From the NCBI GenBank assembly GCA_036012755.1, contig DASCPX010000240.1, positions 1 through 64,000 on the forward strand: 64,000 bases of DNA, read 5' to 3'. Under the pieces are notes generated by a model that worked only from the letters and a program-made list of their open reading frames with translations, was not told where the DNA came from and searched no databases. This document shows, piece after piece, positions 32,992-48,836 of this stretch; position 1 is the stretch's first letter, and each line of letters opens with the position of its first letter. The position numbers and the translations under genes were made by a program. Source of the DNA: Myxococcota bacterium. GTDB lineage: Bacteria; Myxococcota_A; UBA796; CAJQPC01.

Positions 32992-33807
32992 GTGAACGCC
33001 CTCCGCAAACTCCTGGTCGCCCTCGTCGTCGCGACGCTCTGCGGCTGCGATGACGACGCCCAGGAGCGTGTGCGCCTCGTCACGACGACCTCTACCGAGG
33101 CCTCCGGCCTGGCGACCTGGCTGTTTCAGCCCTTCGAGGAGGAGTTCGACGTCCAGGTCCAGGTCGTGGCCGTGGGTACCGGACAGGCCCTGGAGCTGGG
33201 GCGGCGCGGCGACGCTGACCTCGTCGTCGTGCACGCTCGAGAGAGCGAGGACGAGTTCGTCGACGAGGGCTGGGGCATCGACCGCCGGGACCTGATGTGG
33301 AACGACTTCGTCGTGGTCGGGCCGGCAGACGATCCGGCCGGCGTGCGTGGACTGGCCGACGCGGACGGAGCATTCGCCAGGATCAAGGAGACCCGGGCCA
33401 GGTTCGTCTCCAGAGGTGACGACTCGGGGACCCACATGCGCGAGCGCTCGATCTGGAGACGGGCCGGAGGACACCTCGACGACCCCAGCGAGTACCTCGA
33501 GGCAGGCCAAGGCATGGGGAGCTGCCTCCTGCTGGCCGACCAGAGGCTGGCCTACCTCCTGACCGATCGGGGCACCTGGCTGGCCTTCCGATCGAAGGTC
33601 GGACTCGAGGCCCTCGTCGAGGGCGACCCGGCGCTCCGAAACCCCTACGGCATCATCCTCGTCAACCCGGAGCGCCACCCCCACGTCAACGCGGAGGCCG
33701 CCCTGGCACTGCGCGACTGGCTGGTCTCACCGGCAGGCCAGGCGCGGATCGGGGCCTACGAGATCGACGGCGAGGTGCTCTTCCATCCAGCCGAGGACGG
33801 CGCTTGA
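32992..33807 (+). CDS. tupA: Tungstate ABC transporter substrate-binding lipoprotein
   Basis: TTTS tungstate-selectivity motif, VAVGTGQAL, FVSRGDDSGTH, NPY. Confidence 0.93.
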   Translation: MNALRKLLVALVVATLCGCDDDAQERVRLVTTTSTEASGLATWLFQPFEEEFDVQVQVVAVGTGQALELGRRGDADLVVVHARESEDEFVDEGWGIDRRDLMWNDFVVVGPADDPAGVRGLADADGAFARIKETRARFVSRGDDSGTHMRERSIWRRAGGHLDDPSEYLEAGQGMGSCLLLADQRLAYLLTDRGTWLAFRSKVGLEALVEGDPALRNPYGIILVNPERHPHVNAEAALALRDWLVSPAGQARIGAYEIDGEVLFHPAEDGA

Positions 33808-34499
33808 CCTACCTCTTCGATGGGGTCGCGGAGGCGCTGCGCCTCGTGGTGATCGGGGACCCAGAGGTGCTCCACGCCGCCTGGGTCTCGCTGACCTGCA
33901 CGCTGACAGCCGTCAGCCTGGCTGCGGTCATCGCCGTGCCGTGGGGCGCCTGGCTCGGGCTCTACCGCCCCCGGACCCACGGGGTCCAGGTCTTCTTCCT
34001 CCGCCTCGGCATGTCCATGCCCACCGTGCTGATCGGCCTGCTCGTCTTCGGGCTGCTCAGCCGGCAGGGGCTGCTCGGGAGCCTGGACCTCCTCTACACC
34101 CGGACCGCCATCATCACGGGCGAGGTCCTTCTGGCCGTGCCCCTGATCGGCAGCCTTGCGCACGGGCTCGCGGCGGGGCTGGACCGGCGGGTCGTCGACA
34201 CGGCGCTCACCCTCGGCGCCAGCCGCCCGGCCGCGCTGCGCAAGGTCCTGGGCGAGGTGCGCCCAGGTCTGGCCGCGATCACGCTGGCGGCATTCGGGCG
34301 CTGCTTCACCGAGCTCGGCATCGCCATCACCGTGGGCGGCAGCCTGCGCCTGTCGACCCGTACGTTGGCCTCGACGATCCAGCTGGAGCTCTCGCGGGGT
34401 GAGCTGGCCCGAGCGCTGGCTCCGGGCTTGATCCTCCTCGCCGTCGCAGCAGCAGCAGCGGTGGCCGTTCAGCGCCTTTCCAAGGAGAGCCACGCATGA
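33804..34499 (+). CDS. tupB: Tungstate ABC transporter permease
   Basis: Permease with LLSRQGLLG.LDLLYT and FGR..TELG motifs; overlaps the tupA stop. Confidence 0.9.
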   Translation: MTYLFDGVAEALRLVVIGDPEVLHAAWVSLTCTLTAVSLAAVIAVPWGAWLGLYRPRTHGVQVFFLRLGMSMPTVLIGLLVFGLLSRQGLLGSLDLLYTRTAIITGEVLLAVPLIGSLAHGLAAGLDRRVVDTALTLGASRPAALRKVLGEVRPGLAAITLAAFGRCFTELGIAITVGGSLRLSTRTLASTIQLELSRGELARALAPGLILLAVAAAAAVAVQRLSKESHA

Positions 34500-35098
34500 T
34501 CCATGTCGAGGGACTGTTGGTTCGCTTCGGCGCGGTGGTCGCCGTCGAGTTGCCCGGGCTCGTCGTCGGCGAGGGCGAGCGTGTCGGGATCGCCGGTCCC
34601 AACGGCAGCGGCAAGTCCACGCTGCTCCGAGTGCTGGCGGGCCTGCAGGCCCCCACCGCGGGCCACCTCAGCGCCGTGCCGGATGGGACCGTGCTCGTCC
34701 ACCAGCAGCCCTACCTGTTCCGCGGCACTGCCAGGAGCGAGGTCGCCTGGGCGCTCCGTCTCCACGAGCACCCGGCCGCAGAGGCCGACGCGCTGCTCGA
34801 GACGATGGGCGCGTCGCACCTCGCCCACCGCTCCACGAGGGAGCTCTCCGGCGGCGAGCGCCAGCGCGTTGCCCTCGCCCGGGCGCTGGCCACTCGACCG
34901 CGGCTCCTGCTACTCGACGAGCCCTTCGCGGCCCTCGACGACCAGGGCATCGAGCGCATCGCCAAGGCCCTCGACGACTTCGAAGGGACCCTGGTCGTGG
35001 CAGCGCCGATCCTGGAGTGGGTGCGCCTGGATCGCGTCCTGCGACTGGGCCAGCGTCAGTCGACCGTCCGCACGCTCCCGGTCCGCACCACGTCGTAG
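34496..35098 (+). CDS. tupC: Tungstate ABC transporter ATP-binding protein
   Basis: GPNGSGKST, LSGGERQR, LLLDEP; third gene of the operon. Confidence 0.85.
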   Translation: MIHVEGLLVRFGAVVAVELPGLVVGEGERVGIAGPNGSGKSTLLRVLAGLQAPTAGHLSAVPDGTVLVHQQPYLFRGTARSEVAWALRLHEHPAAEADALLETMGASHLAHRSTRELSGGERQRVALARALATRPRLLLLDEPFAALDDQGIERIAKALDDFEGTLVVAAPILEWVRLDRVLRLGQRQSTVRTLPVRTTS

Positions 35099-37020
35099 CC
35101 GCCGAGCTCGACAGCGCCTCGCCTGAACTCCTCCGAGTCGATCACCTCGAGCACCTGCTGGACACCCTCGTGGTCGAGGAACTCGACCGGGATGACCAGC
35201 TCGTAGCGCTCGGTGGCCAAGGGCAGGAAGTCCAGTCCGAGGGCGCGTGCCGCGGACCTGACGCACAACCCGGCGTCAGCGGCACCGCTGGCTACGGCGA
35301 CGGCGACCGCCATGTGGGTGAACTCCTCCGTGCCGTAGCCCTGGATCCGGTTGGCCTCGATCGAGGCCTCTGCGAGCAGGTGGTCGAGGAGCACCCTGGT
35401 ACCCGAGCCGGCCTGGCGGTTGACGAAGTGGAGGTCCTGGCGAACCAGGTCATCCGGTCCCCGCACGCCCTTGGGGTTGCCGCGAGGCACGGCCAGGCCC
35501 TGCTCCCGGTCCACCAGGTGGACGAGCTGCACGGGGACATCCGCCAGGTAGCGACGCACGAAGCTCAGGTTGTAGGAGCCCTCTGATGGGTCGAGCAGGT
35601 GTGAGCCCGCCATGTGACAGGCCCCCTTTCGCAAGGCCCTGAGCCCGCCCAGGCTGCCCACGTGGCTGGAGGCGAGGGTCACGCCGACGCCCCGGGCGCG
35701 CAGCAGGTCGGCGATCAGATCGAGGCAGAGGTCGTGACTGCCCACGGCCACCACGTTCTGCTCGATCTCATGGAGCGGGCGGAGCAGCTCGACCCGCGCT
35801 GGCTCGTGAGCGTGCAGGCCCTCCAGGTCGGTCGGGATGCAGAGCATGCCGTCTGCCCGGGTGAAGCTCGTGACCGTGCCAGCTCCGCGTGGCAGCGGAG
35901 TGGCGACCAGACGCTCACCGACCCGGCCCAGCCGCACCCGCACGAACTCGTCCATGCCCAGCCTCGAGGCGATCTTCCGGGTCGGATGGGCCCGCACGAC
36001 CGGACGGCGAACTGGTGAGACCCCCTGCATGCGTGCCAGCAGCGGCGCCACGAGCTGCTCGAAGCAGAGGATCGCCGAGACCGGGTAGCCCGGCACACCG
36101 ACCACGGGCTTGCCCTCGACGTCTGCCAGCACGGTGGGCTTGCCAGGCATCATTGTCACGCCGTGGACGAGGACCTCGCCCACAGCCTCCGCCGCGGCCC
36201 GGGTGAAGTCGCGGGCGCCGGCGCTCGAACCGCCGATGACCAGCACGAGGTCATATGCGCGGACCGCATCGACGATGACCTCGCAGATGTGGTCCAGGTC
36301 GTCGGCGATGCAGGGGTGGAGGGTGTAGGCGCCACCTGCCTCCTCGACGAGCTTGCCGAGCATCGTGCCGTTGAACTCGATGATGGTGCCAGGCTGCAGG
36401 GCGTCGACCCGGACCTGGTCCGCCGACACGATCTCGGCTCCCGTCGGCACGATCAACACCCGGGGCTGGCGCAGCACCGGGACCTCGAAGATCCCTCCTG
36501 CCATCAGCGCACCCACGCAGGTCGGCCTCACCCGCCGGTGTCTCGCGAAGAGCATCTCGGTCGCGACGATGTCCTCGCCCACCCGGCGCACGTGCTGCCA
36601 GGGGAAGGCGGGAGCCTCGATGCGGATGGCGGCGTCGAGGACCTGGACGTGCTCGATCATGACGACCGCGTCGGTGCCCCCTGGGAGGACGTCCCCCGTG
36701 TTGACCGGGTGGGCTCGGAGACCGAGGGCAAGGTCCATCGGGCTGGCTTCGCTGGCGCCAAAGGTCTGCTCGGCCAGCACCGCGAAGCCGTCCATGGCGG
36801 CTCCGTGGTAGCTCGGAGCAGACACCCGAGCGTGGACAGCCTGGGCCAGCACTCGTCCAACCGCCTCTGCGACGGGCACCTCCTCGGCATCGAGGACAGC
36901 CGCGAAGCGCTCCGACAACAGGGCCCGCGCCTCGGCCAGCCCCGTCATGCGCAGGTAGACGTTGCGGCGATGGCCTCCGCAGGCCGGGGGAGAGTCGCGT
37001 CGTGGGTCGTGGTCGGTCAT
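35056..37020 (-). CDS. moeA: Molybdopterin/tungstopterin metal insertase MoeA fused to C-terminal periplasmic-binding-protein-like domain
   Basis: AMDGFAV, GSSAGARD, PGKP, PGYPVSA; PBP tail HVGSLGGL, NRQAGSGTR, EFTHMAVA. Confidence 0.92.
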   Translation of the reverse strand: MTDHDPRRDSPPACGGHRRNVYLRMTGLAEARALLSERFAAVLDAEEVPVAEAVGRVLAQAVHARVSAPSYHGAAMDGFAVLAEQTFGASEASPMDLALGLRAHPVNTGDVLPGGTDAVVMIEHVQVLDAAIRIEAPAFPWQHVRRVGEDIVATEMLFARHRRVRPTCVGALMAGGIFEVPVLRQPRVLIVPTGAEIVSADQVRVDALQPGTIIEFNGTMLGKLVEEAGGAYTLHPCIADDLDHICEVIVDAVRAYDLVLVIGGSSAGARDFTRAAAEAVGEVLVHGVTMMPGKPTVLADVEGKPVVGVPGYPVSAILCFEQLVAPLLARMQGVSPVRRPVVRAHPTRKIASRLGMDEFVRVRLGRVGERLVATPLPRGAGTVTSFTRADGMLCIPTDLEGLHAHEPARVELLRPLHEIEQNVVAVGSHDLCLDLIADLLRARGVGVTLASSHVGSLGGLRALRKGACHMAGSHLLDPSEGSYNLSFVRRYLADVPVQLVHLVDREQGLAVPRGNPKGVRGPDDLVRQDLHFVNRQAGSGTRVLLDHLLAEASIEANRIQGYGTEEFTHMAVAVAVASGAADAGLCVRSAARALGLDFLPLATERYELVIPVEFLDHEGVQQVLEVIDSEEFRRGAVELGGYDVVRTGSVRTVD

Positions 37021-38243
37021 CAGAACAGCAGCACGGAGACCTGCGCGCCCGCGTCCAGACCCTCCGTGTCCCGGTCGATGCGGACCAGGCCGTGGGCGCC
37101 GACCATGGTTCGGAGCAGTCCGGACCGACCCAGCACCGGCACCGCCCGCACGCTGTCCTGGCCCGGTTCCACGCGCACGCGCACGAAGTCCGTCCGCCCG
37201 TGGGCCGAGACGACGTTGCGGCTCAGGCGTGCAGAGACGCGGAGCCCGCCTGCCTGGTCCCCCCCACCGATGTGCTGCAGGAAAGGCTGCACCAGCACGC
37301 GGAAGACCACCATGGCCGAGGCCGCGTGTCCGGGCAGTCCCCAGACTGCCTTGTCACCCGTCCTCGAGAGGATCGTCGGCTTGCCCGGTCTGATGGCCAC
37401 GCCGTGCGCCAGCAGCTCGGCGTCGGGCAGAGCCTGGAGAACAGCCAGGGTCAGATCGCGGGTACCCACCGACGAACCGCCCGAGATCAGCAAGGTGTCG
37501 GCCTGCGCGAGCGCGGACAGACAGGTGCTCGAGAGCGACTCCAGCTCGTCGGGCACGATGCCCAGCTGGAGGGGACGCCCCCCGCACTGCGTCACGAGCG
37601 CCGCCAGCGTCGTGGAGTTCACGTCGCGCACCTGCCCCGGCCCCGGCTGGGTCTCCGGTGGGACGATCTCGTCGCCGGTGGACAGGATGGCCACGACCGG
37701 CCGTCGGAAGACCTCGACCTCGACCTGCCCGATGGCCGCGAGGAGGCCGGCCTCCTGGGCGCGGATCCGCTGGCCAGCCCTGAGCAGGACCTGGCCGGCG
37801 GCTGCGTCCTCGTCCGATGCGATCAGGTTGTCCCCCGGTGCCACTGGCCGGCTCACCTCGATGGTGCGGTCGTCCAGGTGCTCGGTGTGCTCGACCATCA
37901 CGACCGCGTCGGCCCCATCGGGCGCCATGCCGCCAGTCGGGATGGCCACGGCCTGGCCCCGCCCGACGGTGGCAGTGGCCACCTCCCCCATCTGCACCTC
38001 ACCCACCACATCGAGCAGGGCCGGAGCAGCCTCTGATGCGCCGAACGTGGACGCCGCGACCACAGCGAAGCCGTCCATCGTGGAGCGCCGGAAGCCCGGG
38101 AGGTCGGCCGGAGCCGTGATGTCCTCTGCCAGGTTCCGCCCGACCGCACCGGCAAGCCCGACGGCTTCTGTCCCGACGAGGCCGAAGCGCACGGCGAGGG
38201 CCCGTGCCTGCTCCAGGGAGACGACCTTGAAGAACTCCCTCAT
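37020..38243 (-). CDS. moeA: Gephyrin-like molybdopterin metal insertase MoeA (second paralog)
   Basis: STMDGFAV, ILSTGDE, ISGGSSVGTRD, IRPGKP, LPGH. Confidence 0.92.
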   Translation of the reverse strand: MREFFKVVSLEQARALAVRFGLVGTEAVGLAGAVGRNLAEDITAPADLPGFRRSTMDGFAVVAASTFGASEAAPALLDVVGEVQMGEVATATVGRGQAVAIPTGGMAPDGADAVVMVEHTEHLDDRTIEVSRPVAPGDNLIASDEDAAAGQVLLRAGQRIRAQEAGLLAAIGQVEVEVFRRPVVAILSTGDEIVPPETQPGPGQVRDVNSTTLAALVTQCGGRPLQLGIVPDELESLSSTCLSALAQADTLLISGGSSVGTRDLTLAVLQALPDAELLAHGVAIRPGKPTILSRTGDKAVWGLPGHAASAMVVFRVLVQPFLQHIGGGDQAGGLRVSARLSRNVVSAHGRTDFVRVRVEPGQDSVRAVPVLGRSGLLRTMVGAHGLVRIDRDTEGLDAGAQVSVLLF

Positions 38244-38313
38244 GTTGCGGGCCTATCCGGGCGCGGGGCTGCCTGCCCGGACCTCGCAGCCTCATCGCAA
38301 TAGGCTGTCGGGG

Positions 38314-39477
38314 ATGGGCCGGATGATCTACCTGGACAACAGCGCCACCTCCTTCCCCAAGCCCGAGGAGGTCTACACCTTCATGGATGGCTTCTGGCGC
38401 ACTCGCGGGGTGAATCCGGGGAGATCTGGATTCGATCTCGGCCGGGAAGCGGGGGCCTTCGTGGACGACACCCGAGCGCTGTTGACCGGGCTGTTCAACG
38501 GGACCGACCCAGACCGCCTCTGCTTCGGAAACAACGCCACCGACGCGCTGAACCTCGTGATCAACGGAGTGCTCGGCGAGGGAGACCACGTGGTCACCAC
38601 CAACCTCGAGCACAACTCCGTGCTGAGGCCGCTGGAGCACCTGAGGCGGAACAGGGGAGTCGAGGTCGACCACGTCCCCTGTGACGGCAACGGATTCGTC
38701 GATCCGGATGACATCGAGGGGTGCTTTCGGCCCAACACCCGCCTGGTCATCGTCAACCACGCGTCGAACGTCATCGGCACGATCCAGCCGATCAAGGAGA
38801 TCGGGGCCCGGACTCGGGCGGCGGGTATTGCCTTCGCCGTCGATGCATCACAGTCCGCAGGTGTCGTGCCGATCGACGTCGAAGAGATGAACGTGGACGT
38901 AGTGGTGTTCACGGGCCACAAGTCCCTGATGGGACCGACCGGGATCGGGGGGCTCTACGTCCGGGAGGGGATCGAGATCGAGCTGACCCGGGCGGGCGGG
39001 ACCGGGGTCCGCTCGGCCCAGAGGACCCACCTCGAGGAGTACCCGTACCGCCTCGAATACGGGACCATCAACCTGCTGGGCGTCGCCGGACTCAACGCTG
39101 GTGTGCGCTGGGTCCTCGACGAGGGGATCGACGACATCCACGAACGTGAGATGAAGCTGGTGACCAGGCTCCGAGATGGCGTGAGGGAGATCCCGGGCGT
39201 CACCACCTACTGCCAGGACGACCTGGCCAATCACATCGCCGTGTTCCTGTTCAACATCAACGGGTTCGAAGCAGCACAGACCTCGCCGCTGTTCGACGTC
39301 GACCACGAGATCGCGTGCCGGACCGGGCTCCACTGTGCCCCGCTCGTCCACGACCACCTCGGCACGACCGCGATCGGCGGCGCCGTCCGCTTCAGCCCCG
39401 GCCCCTTCACCACCGAAGCGCACATCGACTCCGCCATAGCTGCAATCGAGGACGTCGCGTCCATGAGGAACCCGTAG
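38314..39477 (+). CDS. Group II cysteine desulfurase / possible selenocysteine lyase (PLP, aminotransferase class V)
   Basis: YLDNSATS, EHNSV, DASQ, TGHK (PLP Lys), RTGLHCAP. Confidence 0.9.
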   Translation: MGRMIYLDNSATSFPKPEEVYTFMDGFWRTRGVNPGRSGFDLGREAGAFVDDTRALLTGLFNGTDPDRLCFGNNATDALNLVINGVLGEGDHVVTTNLEHNSVLRPLEHLRRNRGVEVDHVPCDGNGFVDPDDIEGCFRPNTRLVIVNHASNVIGTIQPIKEIGARTRAAGIAFAVDASQSAGVVPIDVEEMNVDVVVFTGHKSLMGPTGIGGLYVREGIEIELTRAGGTGVRSAQRTHLEEYPYRLEYGTINLLGVAGLNAGVRWVLDEGIDDIHEREMKLVTRLRDGVREIPGVTTYCQDDLANHIAVFLFNINGFEAAQTSPLFDVDHEIACRTGLHCAPLVHDHLGTTAIGGAVRFSPGPFTTEAHIDSAIAAIEDVASMRNP

Positions 39478-39795
39478 GTGCCGATCGTGGACTATCGAGG
39501 GACCCCGCTGGAGCTGAGCGAGGACGGCTTCCTGGCGAGCCCGCGACTGTGGGACGCCGAGGTCGCCCTGTTCATGGCGAAGCGTCAGGGCCTGGAAGAG
39601 CTCGGCAAGGACCACTGGGCGGTGCTCGACTACATCCGGGGCTTCTACGAAGAGCACGGACTGGCACCGCTGGTCCGCAAGATCTGCAGGACCACCGGGC
39701 TCAAGCTGAAGTACATCTACCAACTCTTCCCCGCTGGCCCGGCCATGGGCGCCTGCAAGGTGGCTGGCCTGCCCAACTCCGACGGCTGCGTCTGA
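39478..39795 (+). CDS. DsrC/TusE-family sulfur-relay protein with C-terminal CX10C
   Basis: EDGFL...W, HWAVLDYIR, LFPAGP..GACKVAGLPNSDGCV. Confidence 0.9.
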   Translation: MPIVDYRGTPLELSEDGFLASPRLWDAEVALFMAKRQGLEELGKDHWAVLDYIRGFYEEHGLAPLVRKICRTTGLKLKYIYQLFPAGPAMGACKVAGLPNSDGCV

Positions 39796-39817
39796 AAGAT
39801 CGACGCTGTGACTGGCT

Positions 39818-40681
39818 TCAGGCCTTCTTGCTCTTCTTGACGACGACCCGCTGTGCCTCTGGGATGGGAGGAGGAATGGGCTCTCCGGAGATCTTCCTCA
39901 CCGCGCCGATCTTGGGGGGGCAGGCGTAGAAGCACGTGCCGCAGTGCGTGCACTGCTCCTGGTCGATGATGTGGATGGTCTTCAGCTCGCCGTCGATGGC
40001 CTTGACCGGACACTTCTTGAAGCAGATCAGACAGCCCACGCACATCTCGGGCTCGATGTGGTAGGCGGGGAGCTCCTCGGCAGTGGAGACCGGGTCAGCG
40101 ACGAACTGATCGAGCAGTCCCAGCACCTTCGGCGAGGCATAGAGCTTGTCGTAGGCCGCCTCCGACTTGACACGAACCTGCAGCTTCTCCCTGACCAGGA
40201 TCTTCAGCTGGGGGACCATCTGGTAGACGGACTCGAGCTCTGTCTTCAGCGACTCCGGGTCGAGGCCCTCGCTGGAACCCAGGGGGCCCAGGGCGTCGAG
40301 CTCGTCGACGAAGTCGTCCATCACCTCGGCGAAGCGGTTGCCCTCTGAGGCAGCCACCCACTCGAGCCGCAGCCTGTTCGGGTGGAGCCCGATGCGCTGC
40401 ATCAGGTTCTTGAGCAGGTACATGTTGCCAAGGGCGTCGTAGTTCCCCTCTGTGATGTAGTGGCACTCTCCGGGCCAGCACCCCCCGACGAAGACGCCGT
40501 CGGCCCCGTTCAGGAAGGCCCGAAGCGGAAAGGACAGGTCCACCCTCCCCGTGCACATGAGCCGTATGATCTTGATCTCAGCCGCGTATTGTTGTCTGGA
40601 AACTCCAGCGAGGTCTGCCGCCGAGTACGCTCACCAGTTGCACAGAAAGCCGATGAGTCTGATCTTCGGTTTCAGTCCCAT
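39818..40681 (-). CDS. bamF: Selenocysteine-containing MvhD-like subunit of class II benzoyl-CoA reductase with C-terminal 2x[4Fe-4S] domain (287 aa, Sec17)
   Basis: GGAGG upstream of ATG 40681; reads FLCNW-UGA-AYSAADLAG...MCTGRVD...GGCWPGECHY in a single frame; last gene of the bam operon. Confidence 0.9.
40584..40633 (-). promoter_or_regulatory. In-frame UGA (40631-40633) and putative bacterial SECIS hairpin
   Basis: mRNA UGA GCGUA...CUGGA-GUU-UCCAG...UACGC: G-starting apical loop 27 nt after UGA, with lower GCGUA/UACGC pairing. Confidence 0.7.
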
Positions 40682-40691
40682 GTTGCCCTCC

Positions 40692-43600
40692 TCAGGTCTC
40701 TCTGGTTTCTGGAAACGCGGCGTCGATCTGCCCGAAGATCGCCTCGTCCGTGTAGTGATCAAGCACCACCGCAGTGGTCGGGCACTTCGTACAGCAGAGG
40801 CCGTCCCCCTTGCAGAGGACCGGGTTGACCTCGGCCTTCTTCCCATGGGGAGTGTTGCGCATCTGGATCGCCCCGTAGGTACACGCCGTGACGCAGGCCC
40901 CGCAAGCGATACAGTCGGCCTCGATCACCCTGCACACCGAGCCGGACGCGGTCACCGTGTCCTGAGAGAGCAGGCTGGACGCCCGACCCGCAGCGCCGAG
41001 CGCGGAGCTCACCGTCTCCGAGAGGTGCTTGGGATAGTGCGCGGCGCCACAGAGGAAGACCCCGTCGGCGGCGGAGTCCACCGGCCTCAGCTTGACGTGG
41101 GCCTCCTGGAGGAAGCCGTCCGGGTTCTTGGCCACCTTGTACAGGCGGGCCGCCTCGTCGCTGCCTGCTGAGGGCACCACTGCCGCAGAGAGGACCAGGA
41201 CGTCGGCGTCCAGCGCGAGCCTCTGGCCCAGGATGGGGTCCGGGACGGTCACCCGCAACACCGGCCTGCCATCCTCCACGATCGCCTCCACCTCTGGCTG
41301 GTCGGAGGCCTCGAAGCGCACGAACCTCACCCCCTCGCCTGCCGCCTCGCGGTAGGAGTCCTCGCCGAAACCGTAGGTCCTCATGTCTCGGAAGAGGATG
41401 GTGACCTCCACGCCGACCTTCGCGAGCGACAGCGCGTTCTTCACGGCGTGGTTGCAGCAGACGCGAGCACAGTAGCTCCTGTCCTCGCGCCTGCACCCGA
41501 CACACTGGATCATCACCAGTGAGCTGGCGTCGGCGAGCCGCTGTCCCCCGCGCTGGAGCTCTTCCTCGAGCTCGAGCTGGGTCCACACGCGGTCGTGTCG
41601 TCCGTAGAGGTACTCGGTAGGCACGTACTCCGCGGCGCCGGTGGCGAGGATGACGGCTCCGTGCTCGACGCGCTTGACCCTGCCCTCGGACGAGATCGTC
41701 GTGACGAAGTTGCCGACATAGCCGGAGACGTCCGTGATGGTCGCGCCATGCGAGACCTGGATCAACCGGTGGCGGTAGACCTTGCCGACGAGATGGCGAA
41801 GCGTCGCCCGGACGTCCATGCCGTCCAGGGTGGATGAGATCCTCCGCGCCATTCCGCCGAGCTCCGCGTCTCTCTCCACCAGGGCGACCTCGAAGCCCTG
41901 GTCGGCCAGGTTCAGGGCAGCGGTCATGCCCGCCAGGCCGCCCCCGACCACCAGGGCCCGCTTGTTGACTGGCAGGTCGAACTCCCGGAGGGGCTGGAGC
42001 TGAGCCGTGCGGGCGACGGACATGCGAACGATGTCCTTTGCCTTCGCGGTGGCTTCCTCCTTCTGCTTGGAGTGCACCCAGGAGCAGTGCTCCCGGATGT
42101 TGGCCATGTCGAAGAAGTACTGGTTGATGCCCCCTTCCCGCAGGGTGTCCCTGAACAGCGGCTCGTGGGTCCTGGGCGTGCAGGCGGCGACGACCACGCG
42201 GTTGAGGCCCTTGTCCCGGATGGTGTTCGAGATCTGCGCAGCCGCGTCCGTGGAGCAGATGAACAGGCCCTCCTCGGCGTGGGCCACGTTGTCGAGGGTC
42301 TCGGCGTACTCGACCAGCGACGGGATGTTCACGACCCGCCCGATGTTGGCGCCACAGTGACACGCGAAGACCCCGACGCGGACCTCCTCCTCCGAGACAT
42401 CCCGCTCCGGTGGGTAGATGCGCTCCTTGGCCATCTTGCCGCGGCGGTAGGTCAGCAGATCGGCGGCGAGGGCGCCGGCCCCGCTGGCAGTCGTGACCGC
42501 CTCCGGGATGTCCATCGGCCCCTGGAAGGCCCCGCTGACATAGACGCCGCGGCGCGTGGTCTCCATTGGGCTGGCAGGGTTCGTCTTGCAGAAGTCGTGC
42601 TCGTCCAGCTCGATGTCGAACTGATCGGCGAGCCGCCTCGCATCGGCGGGGGCCTCCAGCCCGATCCCGAGGACCACGAGGTCGAACTCCTCTTCCTTCA
42701 CGCCATCGACCGTGGCGTAGCGGATGGTCACGTTCTTCGTCGACGGGATCTCCCTCCCGATCGAGACGTAGCTCCGGATGAACTCGACCCCCGGGAGCTT
42801 CTCTGCGCGCTGGTAGAAGCGCTCGAAGTCCTTGCCGTAGGAGCGGATGTCGTTGTGGAAGATCGTCGCCTGGGTGTCGGCGGAGTGGTCCTTGGCCAGG
42901 ATCACCTGCTTCTGGATGTAGGAGCAGCAGACCGATGAGCAGTAGCTGTTCCCGCCGTCGTTGACCTGTCGGGATCCGACACAGTGGATCCAGGCGATCT
43001 TGTGGGGATGGGCGCCGTCAGAGGGGCGCAGGATCTCGCCTTCATGGGGACCCGTCGCGCACATCAGCCGCTCGAAGTCGAGGCTGGTCACCACGTTCTC
43101 GATCGAGCCATAGCCGTAGTCGCCACGCACCCTGGGATCGAAGGGAGAGAACCCGGGGCTCAGGATGATCGCGCCGACGTTGATCTCCTGGATCTGCGCC
43201 AACTGGTTGAGATCGATGGCGTTGTTCTTGCAGACACCCACGCAGATGGAGCACTTCTCGTCCTCCAGGTACAGGCACCGCTCGTCGATGTAGGGGACCA
43301 GCGGGACCGCCTGGGAGAAGTAGATGTGGATGGCCTTGTTGTCAGACAGATCCTGGTTGAAGGGGTCCTTGATGTTGACCGGACAGTACTCCGTACAGAT
43401 AGTGCAACCTGTGCAGAGGTCTTCGTCGACGTACCTGGCCTTCCGGTTGAGCGTGACGGTGAAGTCGCCAGCCTGACCCTCGACCCGATCCACCTCTGTG
43501 TAGGTCAGGATCTCGATGTTGGGGTGACGGTCACACTCGATGAACTTGGGTGACTCGATGCACATCGAGCAGTCGTTGGTCGGGAAGGTCTTGTCCAGCT

Positions 43601-43745
43601 GCGCCATCTTGCCGCCGATCGTCGGCGCCTTCTCGACGAGGAAGACCTTGTACCCGGCGGTGCCGAGATCGAGGGCGGCCTGGATTCCGCTGATCCCGCC
43701 TCCAACGACCATGACGTCGCCGAAGCTGGCGCCCGCACTGTTCAT
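40692..43745 (-). CDS. bamE: HdrA-like flavo-iron-sulfur subunit of class II benzoyl-CoA reductase
   Basis: VVGGGISG, MAQLDKTFPTNDC, CVGSR..YCSSVCC, AACTPRTHE, NIREHCSW, second GGGLAG FAD domain, ferredoxin motifs. Confidence 0.9.
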   Translation of the reverse strand: MNSAGASFGDVMVVGGGISGIQAALDLGTAGYKVFLVEKAPTIGGKMAQLDKTFPTNDCSMCIESPKFIECDRHPNIEILTYTEVDRVEGQAGDFTVTLNRKARYVDEDLCTGCTICTEYCPVNIKDPFNQDLSDNKAIHIYFSQAVPLVPYIDERCLYLEDEKCSICVGVCKNNAIDLNQLAQIQEINVGAIILSPGFSPFDPRVRGDYGYGSIENVVTSLDFERLMCATGPHEGEILRPSDGAHPHKIAWIHCVGSRQVNDGGNSYCSSVCCSYIQKQVILAKDHSADTQATIFHNDIRSYGKDFERFYQRAEKLPGVEFIRSYVSIGREIPSTKNVTIRYATVDGVKEEEFDLVVLGIGLEAPADARRLADQFDIELDEHDFCKTNPASPMETTRRGVYVSGAFQGPMDIPEAVTTASGAGALAADLLTYRRGKMAKERIYPPERDVSEEEVRVGVFACHCGANIGRVVNIPSLVEYAETLDNVAHAEEGLFICSTDAAAQISNTIRDKGLNRVVVAACTPRTHEPLFRDTLREGGINQYFFDMANIREHCSWVHSKQKEEATAKAKDIVRMSVARTAQLQPLREFDLPVNKRALVVGGGLAGMTAALNLADQGFEVALVERDAELGGMARRISSTLDGMDVRATLRHLVGKVYRHRLIQVSHGATITDVSGYVGNFVTTISSEGRVKRVEHGAVILATGAAEYVPTEYLYGRHDRVWTQLELEEELQRGGQRLADASSLVMIQCVGCRREDRSYCARVCCNHAVKNALSLAKVGVEVTILFRDMRTYGFGEDSYREAAGEGVRFVRFEASDQPEVEAIVEDGRPVLRVTVPDPILGQRLALDADVLVLSAAVVPSAGSDEAARLYKVAKNPDGFLQEAHVKLRPVDSAADGVFLCGAAHYPKHLSETVSSALGAAGRASSLLSQDTVTASGSVCRVIEADCIACGACVTACTYGAIQMRNTPHGKKAEVNPVLCKGDGLCCTKCPTTAVVLDHYTDEAIFGQIDAAFPETRET

Positions 43746-44905
43746 GGCGTCCCCTCGCTCACCGACTCCCAGAGGACCTCCGCCAGGTCCTTGATCTCCA
43801 TGGTCTGGCCGTCTTCCAGGGACAACCTGCTGTCCTCGAAGTTGCTGATGCAGTAGGGGCAGGAGGTGACCAGCACCTCGGCGCCCGCGTCCACGGCCTG
43901 CTCCAGCCTGAGGTCGGAGAACCTCTCCCCCTTGGGGGTCTCCATCCAGATCCTGCCGCCTCCACCCCCGCAGCACAGGCTCTCTTCCCGGTTGTCCGCC
44001 ATCTCCGCCAGCTCCAGCCCCGACAGTCTCCGGAGGAGCTCCCTGGGCGGATCGTAGATGCCGTTGTGTCGGCCGAGGTAGCAGGGATCGTGGTAGGTGA
44101 CCTTCTTGTCGAAGGCGCCGAGTTCCAGTCGTCCCTCTTCGACCAACCGAGACAACAGCTCGGTGAGGTGGACCACCTCGAAACTCACCATGAACTCTGG
44201 ATACTCGTTCGCGAAGGTGTGGTAGCAGTGGGGCGAGGAGACCAGGATCTTCTTCACGCCGTGGTCGATGAAGGTCTTGATGTTCTCTCGGGCCAGCTTC
44301 TTGAAGACCTCTTCGTCGCCGGTCTTGCGGATGCTCTCGCCACAGCAGCTCTCTTTGGCACCCAGGACGCCGAAGTCCACGCCGGCCCGCTTCAGGAGCT
44401 CGGCGGTGGCGCGGGCGACCTGCTGCAGTCTCGGGTCGAAGCTGTAGTAGCAACCGACGAAGTACAGGAACTCCATCCCCTCGGCGTAGGGCTTCAACCC
44501 CAGACCGGCGGCCCAGTCGGTCCGCTCGTCCCTCTCCGCGCCCAGGGGGTTGCCATCGGAACGAAGGCTCGCGGCGGCGGAGCACACTCCACGAACAGAT
44601 GTGGGGAAGACCTCGTAGGAGGTAGCGATCCGGCGCAGGGAGACACCCACCTCGACCTGCTGCACGCCCCGAGGACACTTCGAAGGGCAGAGGCCGCAGG
44701 TGGTGCAGCGCCACATGTCCTCGAGCTCGATCTCGGGCAGGCCGAAGGTGGCCTGCCGGATGATCTTGCGAATGCTGAAGGACCGCATCCTGTTCCAGGG
44801 GCAGACCACGTCACACTTCCCGCACTGGTAGCAGTACTTGAAGGCATCGCCGCCGGCGTCCTTGATCTCCTGGACGATCTCGGCGAAGGGGGTGACGGTC
44901 TCCAT
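43742..44905 (-). CDS. bamD: HdrC/HdrB-like Fe-S protein with CCG domains
   Basis: CYQCGKCDVVCP, CTTCGLCPSKCP, SCCGE, YHDPCYLGR, CCGGGGG, SCPYC. Confidence 0.9.
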   Translation of the reverse strand: METVTPFAEIVQEIKDAGGDAFKYCYQCGKCDVVCPWNRMRSFSIRKIIRQATFGLPEIELEDMWRCTTCGLCPSKCPRGVQQVEVGVSLRRIATSYEVFPTSVRGVCSAAASLRSDGNPLGAERDERTDWAAGLGLKPYAEGMEFLYFVGCYYSFDPRLQQVARATAELLKRAGVDFGVLGAKESCCGESIRKTGDEEVFKKLARENIKTFIDHGVKKILVSSPHCYHTFANEYPEFMVSFEVVHLTELLSRLVEEGRLELGAFDKKVTYHDPCYLGRHNGIYDPPRELLRRLSGLELAEMADNREESLCCGGGGGRIWMETPKGERFSDLRLEQAVDAGAEVLVTSCPYCISNFEDSRLSLEDGQTMEIKDLAEVLWESVSEGTP

Positions 44906-44910
44906 CAGGC

Positions 44911-45447
44911 TCAGGTCTTCTCCGCCAGCCTGCGCACGGCCTCGACCACCTTTGGCCAGCCGTGCTTGTTGGCGATCGCCTCGAGGTCGACGTCCAGATC
45001 CTCGAGGAGCGCTGCGGCGGGCACCTCTTCCTGGCGCTCCTCGTAAACCAGGGCATCTGCGAGGCACCACTGGACACACCAGGGCTCCTCGAGAGTGGGA
45101 TCCGACTCGCACATGTCGCACTTGAGCGGCAGATCGGAGTCCGGCTCCGTGAAGATGTCGCGGGATGGGCACGACGCGCGGCAGAAGGAGCACTCCTCGT
45201 AGCGCCTCCCGTCGATGATGTACTGGTCCCGACCAGCACACTCCGCGGCCGTGTACTCGCCCGCGTAGACGGGCAGGTAGACGTCCTCCAGCGGGTCACG
45301 AATCACGCGGATGCGGGCCCTGGCCGGGTTGACGCTGCTGAAGCGTGGGGTCGCGTGAAAGGACGAGCAGATCACCTCGCAGGCCCGACAGCCGTTGCAC
45401 TTGTCCACGTCGATCTTGATGGTCTTGACGGTCTTGGTCGGGGTCAC
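44911..45447 (-). CDS. bamC: [4Fe-4S] electron-transfer subunit of class II benzoyl-CoA reductase
   Basis: CNGCRACEVICS, YAGEYT..EC.GRD, ECSFCRASCPSRD, LPLKCDMC, matching BamC as recalled. Confidence 0.92.
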   Translation of the reverse strand: MTPTKTVKTIKIDVDKCNGCRACEVICSSFHATPRFSSVNPARARIRVIRDPLEDVYLPVYAGEYTAAECAGRDQYIIDGRRYEECSFCRASCPSRDIFTEPDSDLPLKCDMCESDPTLEEPWCVQWCLADALVYEERQEEVPAAALLEDLDVDLEAIANKHGWPKVVEAVRRLAEKT

Positions 45448-47441
45448 GTCGCGCCCGCCTCTTTCGGCCCGGGCGCCCCATCGGGGCCCAGGATCCCGCG
45501 CTCTTCGAACTCGTCGGCCACGTAGCCGAGGTCAAGCAGCTCCAGGGTCTCCCGGGTCGGCACGCCCTCGCTGTTCCAGCCCTTGAACTTGTAGTACTCG
45601 TCCAGGAGCTTCTCCTCGAGCTCGGGGAACCTCCGCCTCCAGTGATCATCGGGCGGCTTCTCGTCCGCCCTGGTCAGCCCTCTCCGGAGGTTGTTGGCCC
45701 TGACCAGGTTCCTGTTCCTGCGGGTGAGGTGCGTCAGGCTGTCTTCGTCCAGCTCCAACCCGGTGGCGCTGGAGATCAGCTCTGGCAGGTTGTGGATGTG
45801 GAATGGAGGCTTGAGCGGGAAGGAGGACAAGCCGGCGCACATGCCCGTGCTGTCGTCAATGTAGTGCATCTTCTCCTGCCAGTGCACGATCTCGCAGGTC
45901 GCCTCGATCGGGGGGTAGTGCGGGATGGACTTCTCTCCGCGCAGCTCCCAGTCCTCGAACCACTGCTTGAAGCGCTCGTCCGGGACGTGGGGCCACTCCT
46001 CCGTGAAGGCCTCGCGCTCTTCTCTGGTGCGGAAGGGCGCTTGTGGGAAGTTCCCCTCGATCTGCGTGATGCTGGCCTTCTCGCCCGTGCAGTACATCAA
46101 GAAGTAGATGGGGTTCAGCATCCCGAGCTTCAGCGGAAGCTGCTCGTGCTTGCGGATGTTGTTGTGGGCGTACTCGTCCGAGCCCTTGCCGATCTTCTCG
46201 GCCGCCCAGTGCGTGCCGTCGGCGAGGACGTCGCCGATGCCCTCGCGGCGCACGATCTTCTCGAGCAGGTAGTAGAAGCGCCCCTCGCTATCAGGGGGCA
46301 TCCCCGGGAAGTCGCTGTCGGTCAGGATGCCGTCCTCGAGCAGCTCGATGGCGAAGGCCATGGTCTGGGGGGCGGAGAACGCATCGACGCCGTGCTCCGT
46401 GGCCTTCTGGGCGATGCGCAGACCGAAGTCCAGGTCGGACATGGCGCCCATCGTGTAGGTGAGCTTGGAGAAGCACTTCATCATGTACGAGCAGAATCTC
46501 GTGTCGACGGCGATGGACGCTCCGCACTTCAGCGGGCAGTTGTGGCAACTCAACAGCCGCGTCCGCATGGTCTCCATCGTGTTGGTCCACTTCTCCGCCA
46601 CCTCCTCGGTCCAGAAGCCCTTCCGGCGGTGGCGCGCGTTGCCCCACACGAAGTTCTCCGTGTGCCACTGCTCGTCGTGGACGATCATCTCCTGGGGAGA
46701 GCCCAGCCCGGCCACGATGGGCATGACGCCGGGGATGGGGTTCTTCTCGCGGATCTTGATGTACTTCAGGGCCTCGTTGCAGAGCTTCAGGAACTCGGCC
46801 GGCCGAGCTATCTCGAGGTCACCCGTGCCCCGAACGGCGATGGCCTTGAGGTTCTTGTCTCCCATGACCGCGCCCATGCCGAGTCGGCTGGCGCTCGACC
46901 GTCCCTGCTCGATCGACGCGTAAAAGACCCTGTTCTCCCCGGCCAGGCCGATCGAGGCCACGGCGGCTCCGGGCTCGTCGAGCTCCTGCCGGATCAGCTC
47001 CGCGGTCTCCAGCGTCCCCAGACCCTTGAAGTGGGAGGCGTCGCGGATCTCCACCACGTCGTCCTTGATCCAGAGGTAGACCAGCTCCGGGGACTTGCCG
47101 CGAATGACCACCTTGTCGTAGCCGGCGTGCTTGAGCTCGGGCCCCCAGAAACCACCCATCATCGAGAACGCGAACAGCCGAGTCTGGGGCGAGATCGCAG
47201 AGACGACGGTGCGATTGGTGCCGGGAGCGGGGGTGCCCGCGAGGAGTCCGGTGCCGAAGACGAGCACGTTGTCCGGAGAGAAGGGCTCCACCTCCGGGGG
47301 AGTGCGATCCCACAGCAACCTGGCGTTGGTGCCCAGTCCCCCGAGGTGCAGCTCCGTGAGACGCGGGTCGGTCGCGACACGCTCGATGCTCCCGCGGGTG
47401 AGGTCGATCTCCAGGTTGAAGCCTGTCTCCGCGTACCTCAT
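45444..47441 (-). CDS. bamB: Tungstopterin active-site subunit of class II benzoyl-CoA reductase (AOR family)
   Basis: MRYAETG start, FSMMGGFW, GLGSPQEMIVHDEQWHTENF, SCHNCPLKC, YMMKCFSKLTY, SSFPLKPP: colinear with Geobacter BamB as recalled. Confidence 0.93.
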   Translation of the reverse strand: MRYAETGFNLEIDLTRGSIERVATDPRLTELHLGGLGTNARLLWDRTPPEVEPFSPDNVLVFGTGLLAGTPAPGTNRTVVSAISPQTRLFAFSMMGGFWGPELKHAGYDKVVIRGKSPELVYLWIKDDVVEIRDASHFKGLGTLETAELIRQELDEPGAAVASIGLAGENRVFYASIEQGRSSASRLGMGAVMGDKNLKAIAVRGTGDLEIARPAEFLKLCNEALKYIKIREKNPIPGVMPIVAGLGSPQEMIVHDEQWHTENFVWGNARHRRKGFWTEEVAEKWTNTMETMRTRLLSCHNCPLKCGASIAVDTRFCSYMMKCFSKLTYTMGAMSDLDFGLRIAQKATEHGVDAFSAPQTMAFAIELLEDGILTDSDFPGMPPDSEGRFYYLLEKIVRREGIGDVLADGTHWAAEKIGKGSDEYAHNNIRKHEQLPLKLGMLNPIYFLMYCTGEKASITQIEGNFPQAPFRTREEREAFTEEWPHVPDERFKQWFEDWELRGEKSIPHYPPIEATCEIVHWQEKMHYIDDSTGMCAGLSSFPLKPPFHIHNLPELISSATGLELDEDSLTHLTRRNRNLVRANNLRRGLTRADEKPPDDHWRRRFPELEEKLLDEYYKFKGWNSEGVPTRETLELLDLGYVADEFEERGILGPDGAPGPKEAGAT

Positions 47442-47527
47442 CGAGCGCTCCTGGCATCGCCGTCGGCGGGGGCGCTGCCCCCGGGAGAGGGTTCTATTCC
47501 ACCGCGCCCGCCTCTGCGGCGAGTCTA
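47442..47527 (-). promoter_or_regulatory. Putative bam operon -10 element (TAGACT), leader hairpin and AGGAG RBS
   Basis: Minus strand TAGACT at 47527-47522, GGGGGC-AGC-GCCCCC hairpin, AGGAG 6 nt before the ATG. Confidence 0.4.
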
Positions 47528-47634
47528 GTTCTCTTCGGCGCGAGTTCCGACGCAGTCGGGGCTGCGACGGGGTGAACGGCGGCGCGCGCCGAAGGCGCCG
47601 GTGGAAGGCGCGTCGCGACTTCCGCCGAGGGGCA

Positions 47635-47856
47635 CTACCCGAGTTCCGCCTCGACCGTGCCTCGCAGCTCGACCTCCTCGCTCCAGCCGCTGCCACCGTA
47701 CTCGACGGTGTCGTCCCACTCGAGCTCCAGGTCACCGTCTTCGGCCGTGCCGGAGAGCTCCGCCTCGTACTCTTCTGCGCCGTCGCGGTCCCACATCTCG
47801 TAGACGACCTCGACGCCAAGTGAAACGGCGGTCGAACCCCTGATGTCGAGTCTCAT
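47635..47856 (-). pseudogene. Short acidic ORF, likely the C-terminal remnant of a secreted protein
   Basis: Protein-like acidic beta-strand pattern, no signal peptide, begins next to the 47863 palindrome. Confidence 0.4.
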
Positions 47857-47859
47857 GTC

Positions 47860-47888
47860 TTGACTTGACGTGTCAAGTGGCGCATCCT
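47860..47888 (+). promoter_or_regulatory. Sigma70-like promoter (TTGACT-17-CATCCT) overlapped by palindrome ACTTGAC-GT-GTCAAGT
   Basis: Read directly; palindrome at 47863-47878. Confidence 0.5.
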
Positions 47889-47909
47889 GGTCCCCTGCGA
47901 GGAGACAGA

Positions 47910-48836
47910 ATGTCCCGCGACAACGCAAAGAAGACAGACGAGACCCCCCTCCCGGAGCTCGACGGCCTCGATCTGCCCAAGCCCGAGCACGTCCCGGGGG
48001 ACCTCGAAGACCTCTACGAAGAAGACGTCAGCGACGAGATCACCGACGTCGATCGCTTCGACGTCCCCGAGCCTCGCAACCTGGAGCCCCAGGGCTACCT
48101 GCCACCACCGGACCACCCGAAGGACGACTCGCTGGTCGAGCAGCGCGTCCGCGAGACCGGATGCGTCCTGCTGAGCACCGACGAGGAGGCCATCAGGGCA
48201 CACATGCTCTACGAAGGCACTCGGACCGAGCGCGACCTCGACCGTGGAGAGGACGCCCTGCTCCGTTGGCGCCTGAAGTCCGGCCAGCGCCAGCGGGAGC
48301 ACGCCGAGCGCACCGCCTTCGAGAATGCCGGGCGCAGAAAGGCAGTGGGCTCAGCCATGTTCGTCGGCCTCGTGCTGGGAGGATCCGTCTGGGTCGCCGT
48401 GCTGCTCGGTGACGCGACGACCCAGCCCGAGTCGCCCCTCCCGGAGCTCACGCCCGCGGTCCTGGCCGCAGTGGCCGCGCCTGTCGTGGTCCCACCGGTG
48501 ATCACCGAGGTCGACGGAGGCACCCTCGTCGAGGTGCAGACCGAGCTCTGGACCCCGCCCGTCATCGAGGGCAGCTACAGGAGCTGGGACAACGACGGCC
48601 ACCGTTTCTGGCAGTTCGACTTCGCCAGCGAGGACCCGATGAACCTGCGGTGGGTGGATCCCGCCGGCGAGGTCCGCCTCGACGACACGGTCTGCGACAA
48701 CCGCATAGACGGCGCCACCGGCCGCTGCTACGTCGGACGGAACATCGCCCGCTTCGCCGACGCCCCTGATGGGGAGTGGACGCTGGTCGGCTGTCTCGAC
48801 GCGCGCTGCGGCCCGGTCTCGACCTTCGAGTTCTAG
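47910..48836 (+). CDS. Hypothetical bitopic membrane protein
   Basis: GAGGAG RBS, acidic N-terminus, one TM, Cys-paired C-domain. Confidence 0.7.
   Translation: MSRDNAKKTDETPLPELDGLDLPKPEHVPGDLEDLYEEDVSDEITDVDRFDVPEPRNLEPQGYLPPPDHPKDDSLVEQRVRETGCVLLSTDEEAIRAHMLYEGTRTERDLDRGEDALLRWRLKSGQRQREHAERTAFENAGRRKAVGSAMFVGLVLGGSVWVAVLLGDATTQPESPLPELTPAVLAAVAAPVVVPPVITEVDGGTLVEVQTELWTPPVIEGSYRSWDNDGHRFWQFDFASEDPMNLRWVDPAGEVRLDDTVCDNRIDGATGRCYVGRNIARFADAPDGEWTLVGCLDARCGPVSTFEF

Follow-up and report, generated by a model that had tools for sequence, protein, structure and literature searches.

How can a class II benzoyl-CoA reductase take up electrons when its gene cluster lacks the usual input arm? The class II enzyme contains tungsten and needs neither oxygen nor ATP to break benzene rings, and the question is raised by a stretch of 64,000 nucleotides from a Myxococcota bacterium (assembly GCA_036012755.1, contig DASCPX010000240.1, positions 1 to 64,000 of the forward strand), referred to here as the window. 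In it, a bam operon ends at bamF, without bamGHI, and lies tail-to-tail with a gene for a DsrC-like protein. A preliminary description of this DNA had proposed that the DsrC-like protein stands in as the high-potential acceptor in electron bifurcation, with sulfur delivery for maturation of the tungsten cofactor as the more ordinary alternative. Our analysis leads to a different answer. The island is predicted to encode a five-subunit class II benzoyl-CoA reductase, BamBCDEF*, together with tungsten uptake and cofactor genes, in which BamF* (F*) joins the remainder of BamF to the ferredoxin domain of BamH. We consider it reasonably probable that this is a ferredoxin-fed, NADH-independent class II reductase that has electron-transferring flavoprotein (ETF) as its high-potential acceptor and a desulfurase-DsrC pair as a sulfur relay.

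A Reductase Cluster That Ends at bamF

The following features carry the argument:

45444 to 47441, minus strand: bamB, tungsten catalytic subunit (665 aa; phmmer score of 1105 bits to Geobacter metallireducens BamB, 4z3w_A, over residues 1-652)
44911 to 45447, minus strand: bamC, Fe-S subunit (178 aa; Fer4 domains; 57-81% to genes that follow bamB in related loci)
43742 to 44905, minus strand: bamD, HdrBC-like high-potential exit subunit (387 aa; Fer4 and two CCG domains; best solved relative 9ojn_A, E 2.5e-68)
40692 to 43745, minus strand: bamE, double HdrA-like bifurcating subunit (1017 aa; HdrA models)
39818 to 40681, minus strand: bamF*, putative selenocysteine MvhD-like adaptor plus BamH C-terminal domain (287 aa; UGA at 40633-40631; FlpD and two Fer4 domains)
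39821 to 40093, minus strand: within bamF*, the putative BamH-derived 2x[4Fe-4S] ferredoxin-entry domain with a BamH-type proline-rich tail (F* residues 197-287; 44-60% to BamH C-termini)

The second-best phmmer match of BamB, AOR, reached only 211 bits. The protein retains Glu251, His255, Glu257 and His260, and its Cys323 is the equivalent of the tungsten ligand Cys322 (active-site residues as named in the available text of PMC12096430). The stop codons of bamF (39818, minus strand) and the convergent DsrC-like gene (39795, plus strand) are separated by 22 bases, in agreement with the preliminary description. The junction between the two genes is no assembly artefact: both it and the inner fusion junction of bamF* are bridged, with 0 differences, by contigs of the runs X3 (38126-40743) and X4 (39092-40238), which come from the same study as a possible source run and were themselves not flagged as a possible source. 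The GC content at third codon positions of the island (0.865-0.92) is inside the range of the genome, so its composition shows no sign of recent transfer.

The absence of bamGHI noted earlier for the cluster extends to the genome (6.73 Mb, 250 contigs, 95.95% complete), in which a genome-wide search found no orthologue of these genes. The sole NuoF-like flavoprotein is a NuoE-F fusion on contig C59, beside a formate dehydrogenase alpha subunit, with 35-36% to BamH, and the remaining PF01512 matches of the genome lie in two Rnf-type clusters.

A Predicted BamH Ferredoxin Domain Fused to BamF

The true bamF begins at 40681 and its codon 17 is an in-frame UGA; read-through yields 287 residues that end with two [4Fe-4S] motifs. 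A hairpin after the UGA has an energy of -17.8 kcal/mol (computed without a shuffled-sequence control). MvhD matches covered residues 8-141 and HydB-type matches residues 197-260 (best PDB entries 9bov_B and 8a6t_B); a fold search gave separate matches to MvhD and HydB only, and no solved structure of the fusion. Residues 197-287 match canonical BamH C-termini (58% to residues 391-464 of the BamH of locus L030), the proline-rich tail is of a BamH type that the other HydB-like paralogues lack, and the fused domain clusters with BamH domains in a ferredoxin-domain tree. All eight cluster cysteines are invariant in 104 aligned sequences, and the AlphaFold2 model of F* is confident (pLDDT 87, pTM 0.76).

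The significance of this arrangement follows from the Geobacter enzyme. According to the available text of a cryo-EM preprint (10.64898/2026.04.10.717634), Geobacter BamF carries a single [2Fe-2S] cluster and binds BamI through a winged helix, the C-terminal domain of BamH (clusters H1/H2) is the acceptor for external reduced ferredoxin, and BamI cluster I3 is the electron donor to BamE E1/E2, making BamGHI the electron input arm. Judged from the sequences, the winged helix of BamF, the dock of BamI, is replaced in F* by the C-terminal 2x[4Fe-4S] ferredoxin-entry domain of BamH. The sequences show that an in-frame deletion took out the BamF winged helix, bamG and most of bamH, joining the remainder of BamF to the ferredoxin domain of BamH, and that bamI is gone as well.

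Distribution and Origins of the Fusion

From at least 607 BamB loci, our survey took the best 80, and 49 of these 80 extend to bamF. Twenty-three of the 49 are intact and canonical (winged helix, then GHI) and 20 have an intact F*; the rest consist of one frameshifted canonical gene, one frameshifted F*, two loci in which the gene is a short MvhD-type one and two that a contig end interrupts. The two loci with the short gene have a third architecture (L017:14747-15121 and L079:9567-9941), in which bamBCDE is followed by an MvhD-type gene with a second in-frame UGA and then by FdhD and etfB genes. At every F* locus surveyed, bamGH were absent from the 1.7-4.3 kb downstream. No BamH orthologue was found in 22 F* genomes (best matches 36-62% vs. 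70-80% in two controls) or in the additional F* genomes G064 and G079, and none of 27 fetched BamH paralogues, taken as the top matches per genome, fell inside the BamH clade (support 99).

Some 90 sequence clusters, with identities as low as 42%, contain F*, which has two junction types that are 11 residues apart and account for 42 and 48 of 118 homologue clusters (90/118 together; the 28 unclassed are mostly BamH-like fragments). In group 1, the type of the window, a few extra BamF residues precede a remnant of the BamH linker, and in group 2 the junction falls where BamF and BamH both read about E-L-I, a pattern that may mark the crossover points. The two groups are separate among BamH domains in the ferredoxin-domain tree (99/96 and 95/82; 82 columns only). 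A single origin of F* was considered and rejected, as the BamE tree requires 4-6 changes (AU p 1.85e-12). Because the BamE tree rejects one F* clade and the groups are apart in the ferredoxin-domain tree, at least two deletions are indicated; the latter tree requires only 2 changes for F*, and group 2 F* may therefore have spread by recombination. F* thus likely arose at least twice, with later recombination.

The groups also differ in their hosts: dsrA is present in 17 of 18 group-2 genomes (sulfate reducers) and in 0/6 group-1 genomes. Rnf/Nqr D-family genes do not distinguish F* from canonical genomes, being in 21/24 and 20/26, respectively (G137 was dropped as a duplicate of G024, with identical coordinates). 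Locus L259 has the entire island of the window in the same order, and the island is whole in G079. At L258:13314-13500 there is a short second bamF-like copy, its N-terminus joined to the fusion linker, which is apparently a broken duplicate 7 kb from an intact F*.

Electron Entry, Exit and Energetics

If the fusion alters electron entry, its imprint might be sought in the other subunits, which we compared column by column (42-44 sequences per subunit). BamE 946 and 947 are the only BamBCDE columns that are conserved in canonical sequences and lost in both F* groups, and their place is in the C-terminal cluster motif, flanked by its first and second cysteines, at the site of electron entry. 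Ser947 is in 22/24 canonical and 3/24 F* sequences, a contrast that, with only four independent pairs, is suggestive. No F*-specific shift was found in the columns of BamB, BamC or BamD. BamE Cys59 and the bifurcation lysine, Lys279, are in 44/44, as is the Cys62 site, which is a cysteine in the window. In 22/44 clusters (L010-L089) position 62 is a selenocysteine codon; these form a single BamE clade in which F* and canonical types both occur. On the exit side, BamD has Ser224 in place of a CCG cysteine and His226 in 44/44. We infer that BamD His226, Trp320 and Tyr351 correspond to the His230, Trp325 and Tyr356 of the preprint.

In the Geobacter structure, ETF is the acceptor bound at BamD, and the heterodisulfide site of BamD is blocked (10.64898/2026.04.10.717634, available text). 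As BamGHI is the input arm and ETF is at the BamD exit, the loss of GHI creates no need for a new acceptor, and the fused ferredoxin domain accounts for electron input without GHI. F* would most likely pass ferredoxin electrons directly to BamE E1/E2, from where they would travel via the [2Fe-2S]/selenocysteine site of BamF to the bifurcating FAD. Low-potential electrons would then go to BamCB and high-potential electrons to BamD and on to ETF. There would be no direct entry of NADH, and the ferredoxin would be supplied by 2-oxoacid:ferredoxin oxidoreductase or by reversed Rnf.

Taking -622 and +16 mV from the same preprint and assuming -450 mV for ferredoxin, four ferredoxin electrons yield -57 kJ with ETF as acceptor, vs. 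-32 kJ for NADH plus ferredoxin. For an acceptor at an assumed -220 mV, the values are -11 kJ with four ferredoxin electrons and +14 kJ with NADH plus ferredoxin, so that such an acceptor would be feasible only with ferredoxin alone.

Several observations weigh against a ferredoxin-fed enzyme that delivers to ETF. The BamE 946-947 signal comes from four independent pairs (sign test p 0.25), with 3/24 F* sequences keeping the serine and 2/24 canonical ones lacking it. G135 has a canonical-length BamF yet no BamH match above 52%, an indication that absence in metagenome-assembled genomes (MAGs) can mislead. An ETF gene is in the flanks of 0/22 F* loci (canonical 1/24), and a strict motif scan gave only one small 2x[4Fe-4S]-type ferredoxin candidate. 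A DsrC-family match is in all 24 F* genomes searched (22/22 plus G064 and G079) vs. 18/23 canonical ones. The genome of the window also has an ATP-dependent class I-type reductase, and the class II cluster therefore need not be used. Finally, other HydB-like proteins in most F* genomes could dock in trans.

The last point leads to a reading in which the fused domain serves not free ferredoxin but some other donor enzyme, for which it would be a docking wire; the donor might be formate dehydrogenase, Rnf, a 2-oxoacid oxidoreductase or a HydABC-like paralogue, and the input would be modular. The HydB-like paralogues concerned reach 50-62%, an 825-aa NuoG/FdhA-like ORF lies downstream of F* in L026 (from the isolate Acididesulfobacillus acetoxydans), and the genome of the window has the NuoEF-formate dehydrogenase described above. 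However, the C59 flavoprotein lacks a C-terminal ferredoxin domain, the best match to BamH does not exceed 43% in G000, G006, G013 and G079, and no donor gene is a shared neighbor of F* loci; we regard a docking wire as unlikely.

The Desulfurase-DsrC Pair

What, then, is the role of the DsrC-like gene? It is the last of a set of genes on the other side of the bamF* stop codon:

39478 to 39795, plus strand: DsrC/TusE-family sulfur carrier (105 aa; Cys93 and Cys104, CX10C; PF04358 97.7 bits; TIGR03342 89.9 bits, cut-off 53.5)
38323 to 39477, plus strand: cysteine desulfurase family protein, TIGR01977 (384 aa; 430.7 bits, cut-off 377), abutting the DsrC-like gene
35056 to 38243, minus strand: two moeA genes, the second with a PBP domain, for metal insertion into the pterin cofactor (domain/family models; same arrangement in L259)
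32992 to 35098, plus strand: tupABC-like oxyanion (tungstate) ABC transporter (TupA 188.6 and TupB 134.5 bits, both below equivalog cut-offs; tupA 71% in L259)

The desulfurase is below the cut-off for the selenocysteine lyase SclA (NF040779, 316 bits vs. 525), and the DsrC-like protein misses that of the TusE equivalog (NF008562, 55.3 bits vs. 191) and has two cysteines, not one, as had been reported for it. It is the only DsrC-family gene in the genome, and the searches also bore out the expected lack of dsrAB: genome-wide, there was no NIR_SIR-domain match and no dsrA. In the taxonomic order of this genome, which is also that of the Myxococcota MAG of L029, 49/154 genomes have DsrC-family genes, and most of the 24 fetched have one cysteine.

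The pair forms one clade of nine in both protein trees (DsrC clade support 99/94), and its DsrC clade lies apart from the DsrC of dsrA genomes. Among the DsrC of the pair, with cysteines checked in the fetched loci, both C-terminal cysteines are kept in 9/9, and all nine have another residue in place of the lysine that precedes the last cysteine motif. The preliminary description had asked whether the pair goes with bam clusters that lack bamGHI. In part it does: the pair is present in 6/6 group-1 F* genomes and in L129, adjoining the bam cluster in the window, L028, L129 and L259, 20 kb off in G064 and on other contigs in G001 and G006. The association is not exclusive: on a 1.9-kb contig, L127, a canonical bamI is followed by the pair, and L126 has the pair without bam. 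Related pairs of a desulfurase and a two-cysteine DsrC are in G074 and G080 (no BamF found) and in G135 and G033 (canonical BamF).

A sister DsrC clade, which contains most of 79 metagenome desulfurase loci (L124-L202), lies beside TmcB/DsrK-like and NarI-like genes, not bam, moeA or tup. Sixty-six of these loci have a DsrC-like gene and two have bam genes, though the set looks dominated by one lineage. None of the 79 had moeA or tup, and the possibility that the pair tracks with these genes regardless of bam therefore falls. The combination of desulfurase, two-cysteine DsrC-like, TmcB/DsrK-like and NarI-like genes (e.g., L125:10001-13649) belongs mostly to one syntenic lineage.

A DsrC acceptor nevertheless deserves consideration in a revised form, in which all-ferredoxin input would let BamD pass its electrons to DsrC, as a disulfide, persulfide or trisulfide, rather than to ETF, the sulfate reducers using their own DsrC and the lineage of the window having imported the pair. 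This would agree with the frequency of DsrC-family matches in F* genomes, with the distribution of dsrA (group 1 has none yet has the pair throughout) and with the -11 kJ calculated for a -220 mV acceptor. Retention of both cysteines is unusual without DsrAB (the available text of PMC3397948 lists two-cysteine homologues without DsrAB as exceptions), and the genome of the window has no DsrMK or DsrK orthologue and none of the TmcB/DsrK-like and NarI-like neighbors of the sister clade. Were it true, ring reduction in sulfate reducers would feed sulfate respiration directly. However, group 1 is one clade and so represents one event only, and the pairs of L127 and of the genomes without BamF or with canonical BamF occur independently of F*. 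BamD has no F*-specific column and keeps its Cys-to-Ser change, ETF binding was shown in Geobacter, and, without DsrAB, one cysteine would be spent per ring reduced unless another sulfur donor loads DsrC. We therefore hold even the revised proposal to be unlikely; as first put forward, it is not supported by the same evidence or by GHI being the input arm.

Several observations favor a sulfur relay: relatives of an FdhD sulfurtransferase (at least 56% to one of them) are in the same slot, right after the last bam gene, at five F* and four canonical loci; the pair follows a canonical bamI in L127; and IscS with cysteine persulfurates DsrC in vitro (PMC3397948, available text). The DsrC-like protein is thus probably a helper in cofactor assembly rather than an electron acceptor. 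From the desulfurase, persulfide (or selenium) would pass to the DsrC-like carrier and serve the assembly of cofactors or clusters. The earlier sulfur-delivery alternative fares better than the acceptor proposal on this evidence, without a general linkage of the pair to moeA/tup.

Genomic Context

The genome encodes had and oah above cut-off and a dch-like gene below cut-off, three ETFs, an EMO-like protein, Rnf, 2-oxoacid:ferredoxin oxidoreductase, NarG and a cytochrome oxidase. A search for tRNA-Sec and selD found both. The class I-type reductase genes are all below equivalog cut-offs; at C71:96151-116142 (L006) the C-, B- and two ATPase-like genes adjoin Rnf and 2-oxoacid:ferredoxin oxidoreductase genes, placing both reductase classes in one genome. 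A cluster at C43:94319-105930 (L233), which we take to be sHdr-like, has HdrC, B and A, a CCG fusion, etfBA, EMO-like, DsrE2- and LipS1-like genes, and is a possible sulfur source for the DsrC-like protein. At C70:290568-307050 a selenocysteine-containing selD and had-oah-dch lie ~13 kb apart, and a heme-copper oxidase-family gene is in between. Near 47525-47590 (interval 47452-47985, upstream of bamB) a depth spike and loose ends suggest a repeated element at the island edge.

This gene content raises the question of whether the cluster, once acquired, is decaying or unused, or acts on another aryl-CoA or in reverse, with the class I-type enzyme performing ring reduction in a facultative nitrate respirer. 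The oxidase, NarG and class I-type genes would suit such a host, BamF is patchy (7/154 genomes of the order and neither other genome of the genus), and G064 has a broken partial bamF copy. However, all five frames are intact with their catalytic and cluster residues conserved, F* persists across its many divergent sequence clusters, and the same island is whole in G079. Any of these readings seems to us very doubtful.

Comparison with Known Systems

No description of the F* fusion was found in the literature searched, a search that did not cover all key papers; the available texts of PMC13328260, PMC13101534, PMC5109826, PMC5736913, PMC6129605, PMC4148979 and PMC10570749 have the usual eight-subunit enzyme or partial gene sets. 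For the benzene-degrading culture BzS1 (PMC13416013), the available text names five subunits, "BamB-F," with BamB, E and F detected as proteins, and does not discuss them as a variant; "BamH" is not in the four supplementary files searched. The BzS1 BamF of 26.5 kDa fits both a group-2 F* from an internal Met (24.4-27.7 kDa) and a canonical frame from just after the UGA (236 aa), and its type is therefore ambiguous.

Each of the two isolated class II reductases comprises eight subunits and a pair of energy-coupling flavin modules, and the coupled reaction is unmeasured in vitro (10.64898/2026.04.10.717634, available text). Against this background, about half of the assessable clusters (20/43 intact loci, from the best 80 of at least 607) would specify a reductase of five subunits that has a single module and a tethered ferredoxin port. 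With the F* form as a natural minimal system, one could ask if ring reduction can be driven from ferredoxin by HdrA-type bifurcation alone. Clusters counted as incomplete because they lack bamGHI may be complete, including those of facultative nitrate respirers with class I genes.

The HydB-type ferredoxin domain of HydABC, NfnABC, StnABC and BamH (H1/H2) is likewise a 2x[4Fe-4S] domain; in F*, unlike these, it is detached from the FMN/NAD core and the zinc-binding linker cysteines and fused to an MvhD-like adaptor. The DsrC-like protein shares its fold family and both C-terminal cysteines with DsrC of sulfate reducers and TusE (TIGR03342), but belongs to a separate clade tied to a TIGR01977 desulfurase, in a genome without dsrAB or DsrK.

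The closest comparison is with the G. metallireducens Bam[(BC)2DEFGHI]2 complex (BamBC PDB 4Z3W-4Z40), with which the window shares the bamBCDEF order, the BamB active-site residues, the selenocysteine in BamF, BamE Cys59/Cys62 and the bifurcation lysine, and the Cys-to-Ser change in the second non-cubane site of BamD. It differs in having no bamG, bamH core or bamI, in the predicted exchange of the winged helix for the BamH 2x[4Fe-4S] domain, and in a host with an oxidase, NarG and a class I-type reductase. Thus the BamB ligands and BamC-F cluster of a class II enzyme are present, whereas the BamGHI module and BamI-binding winged helix are absent, and on balance we think that the enzyme works like a class II benzoyl-CoA reductase, to which the fused domain would give a plausible ferredoxin-only input.

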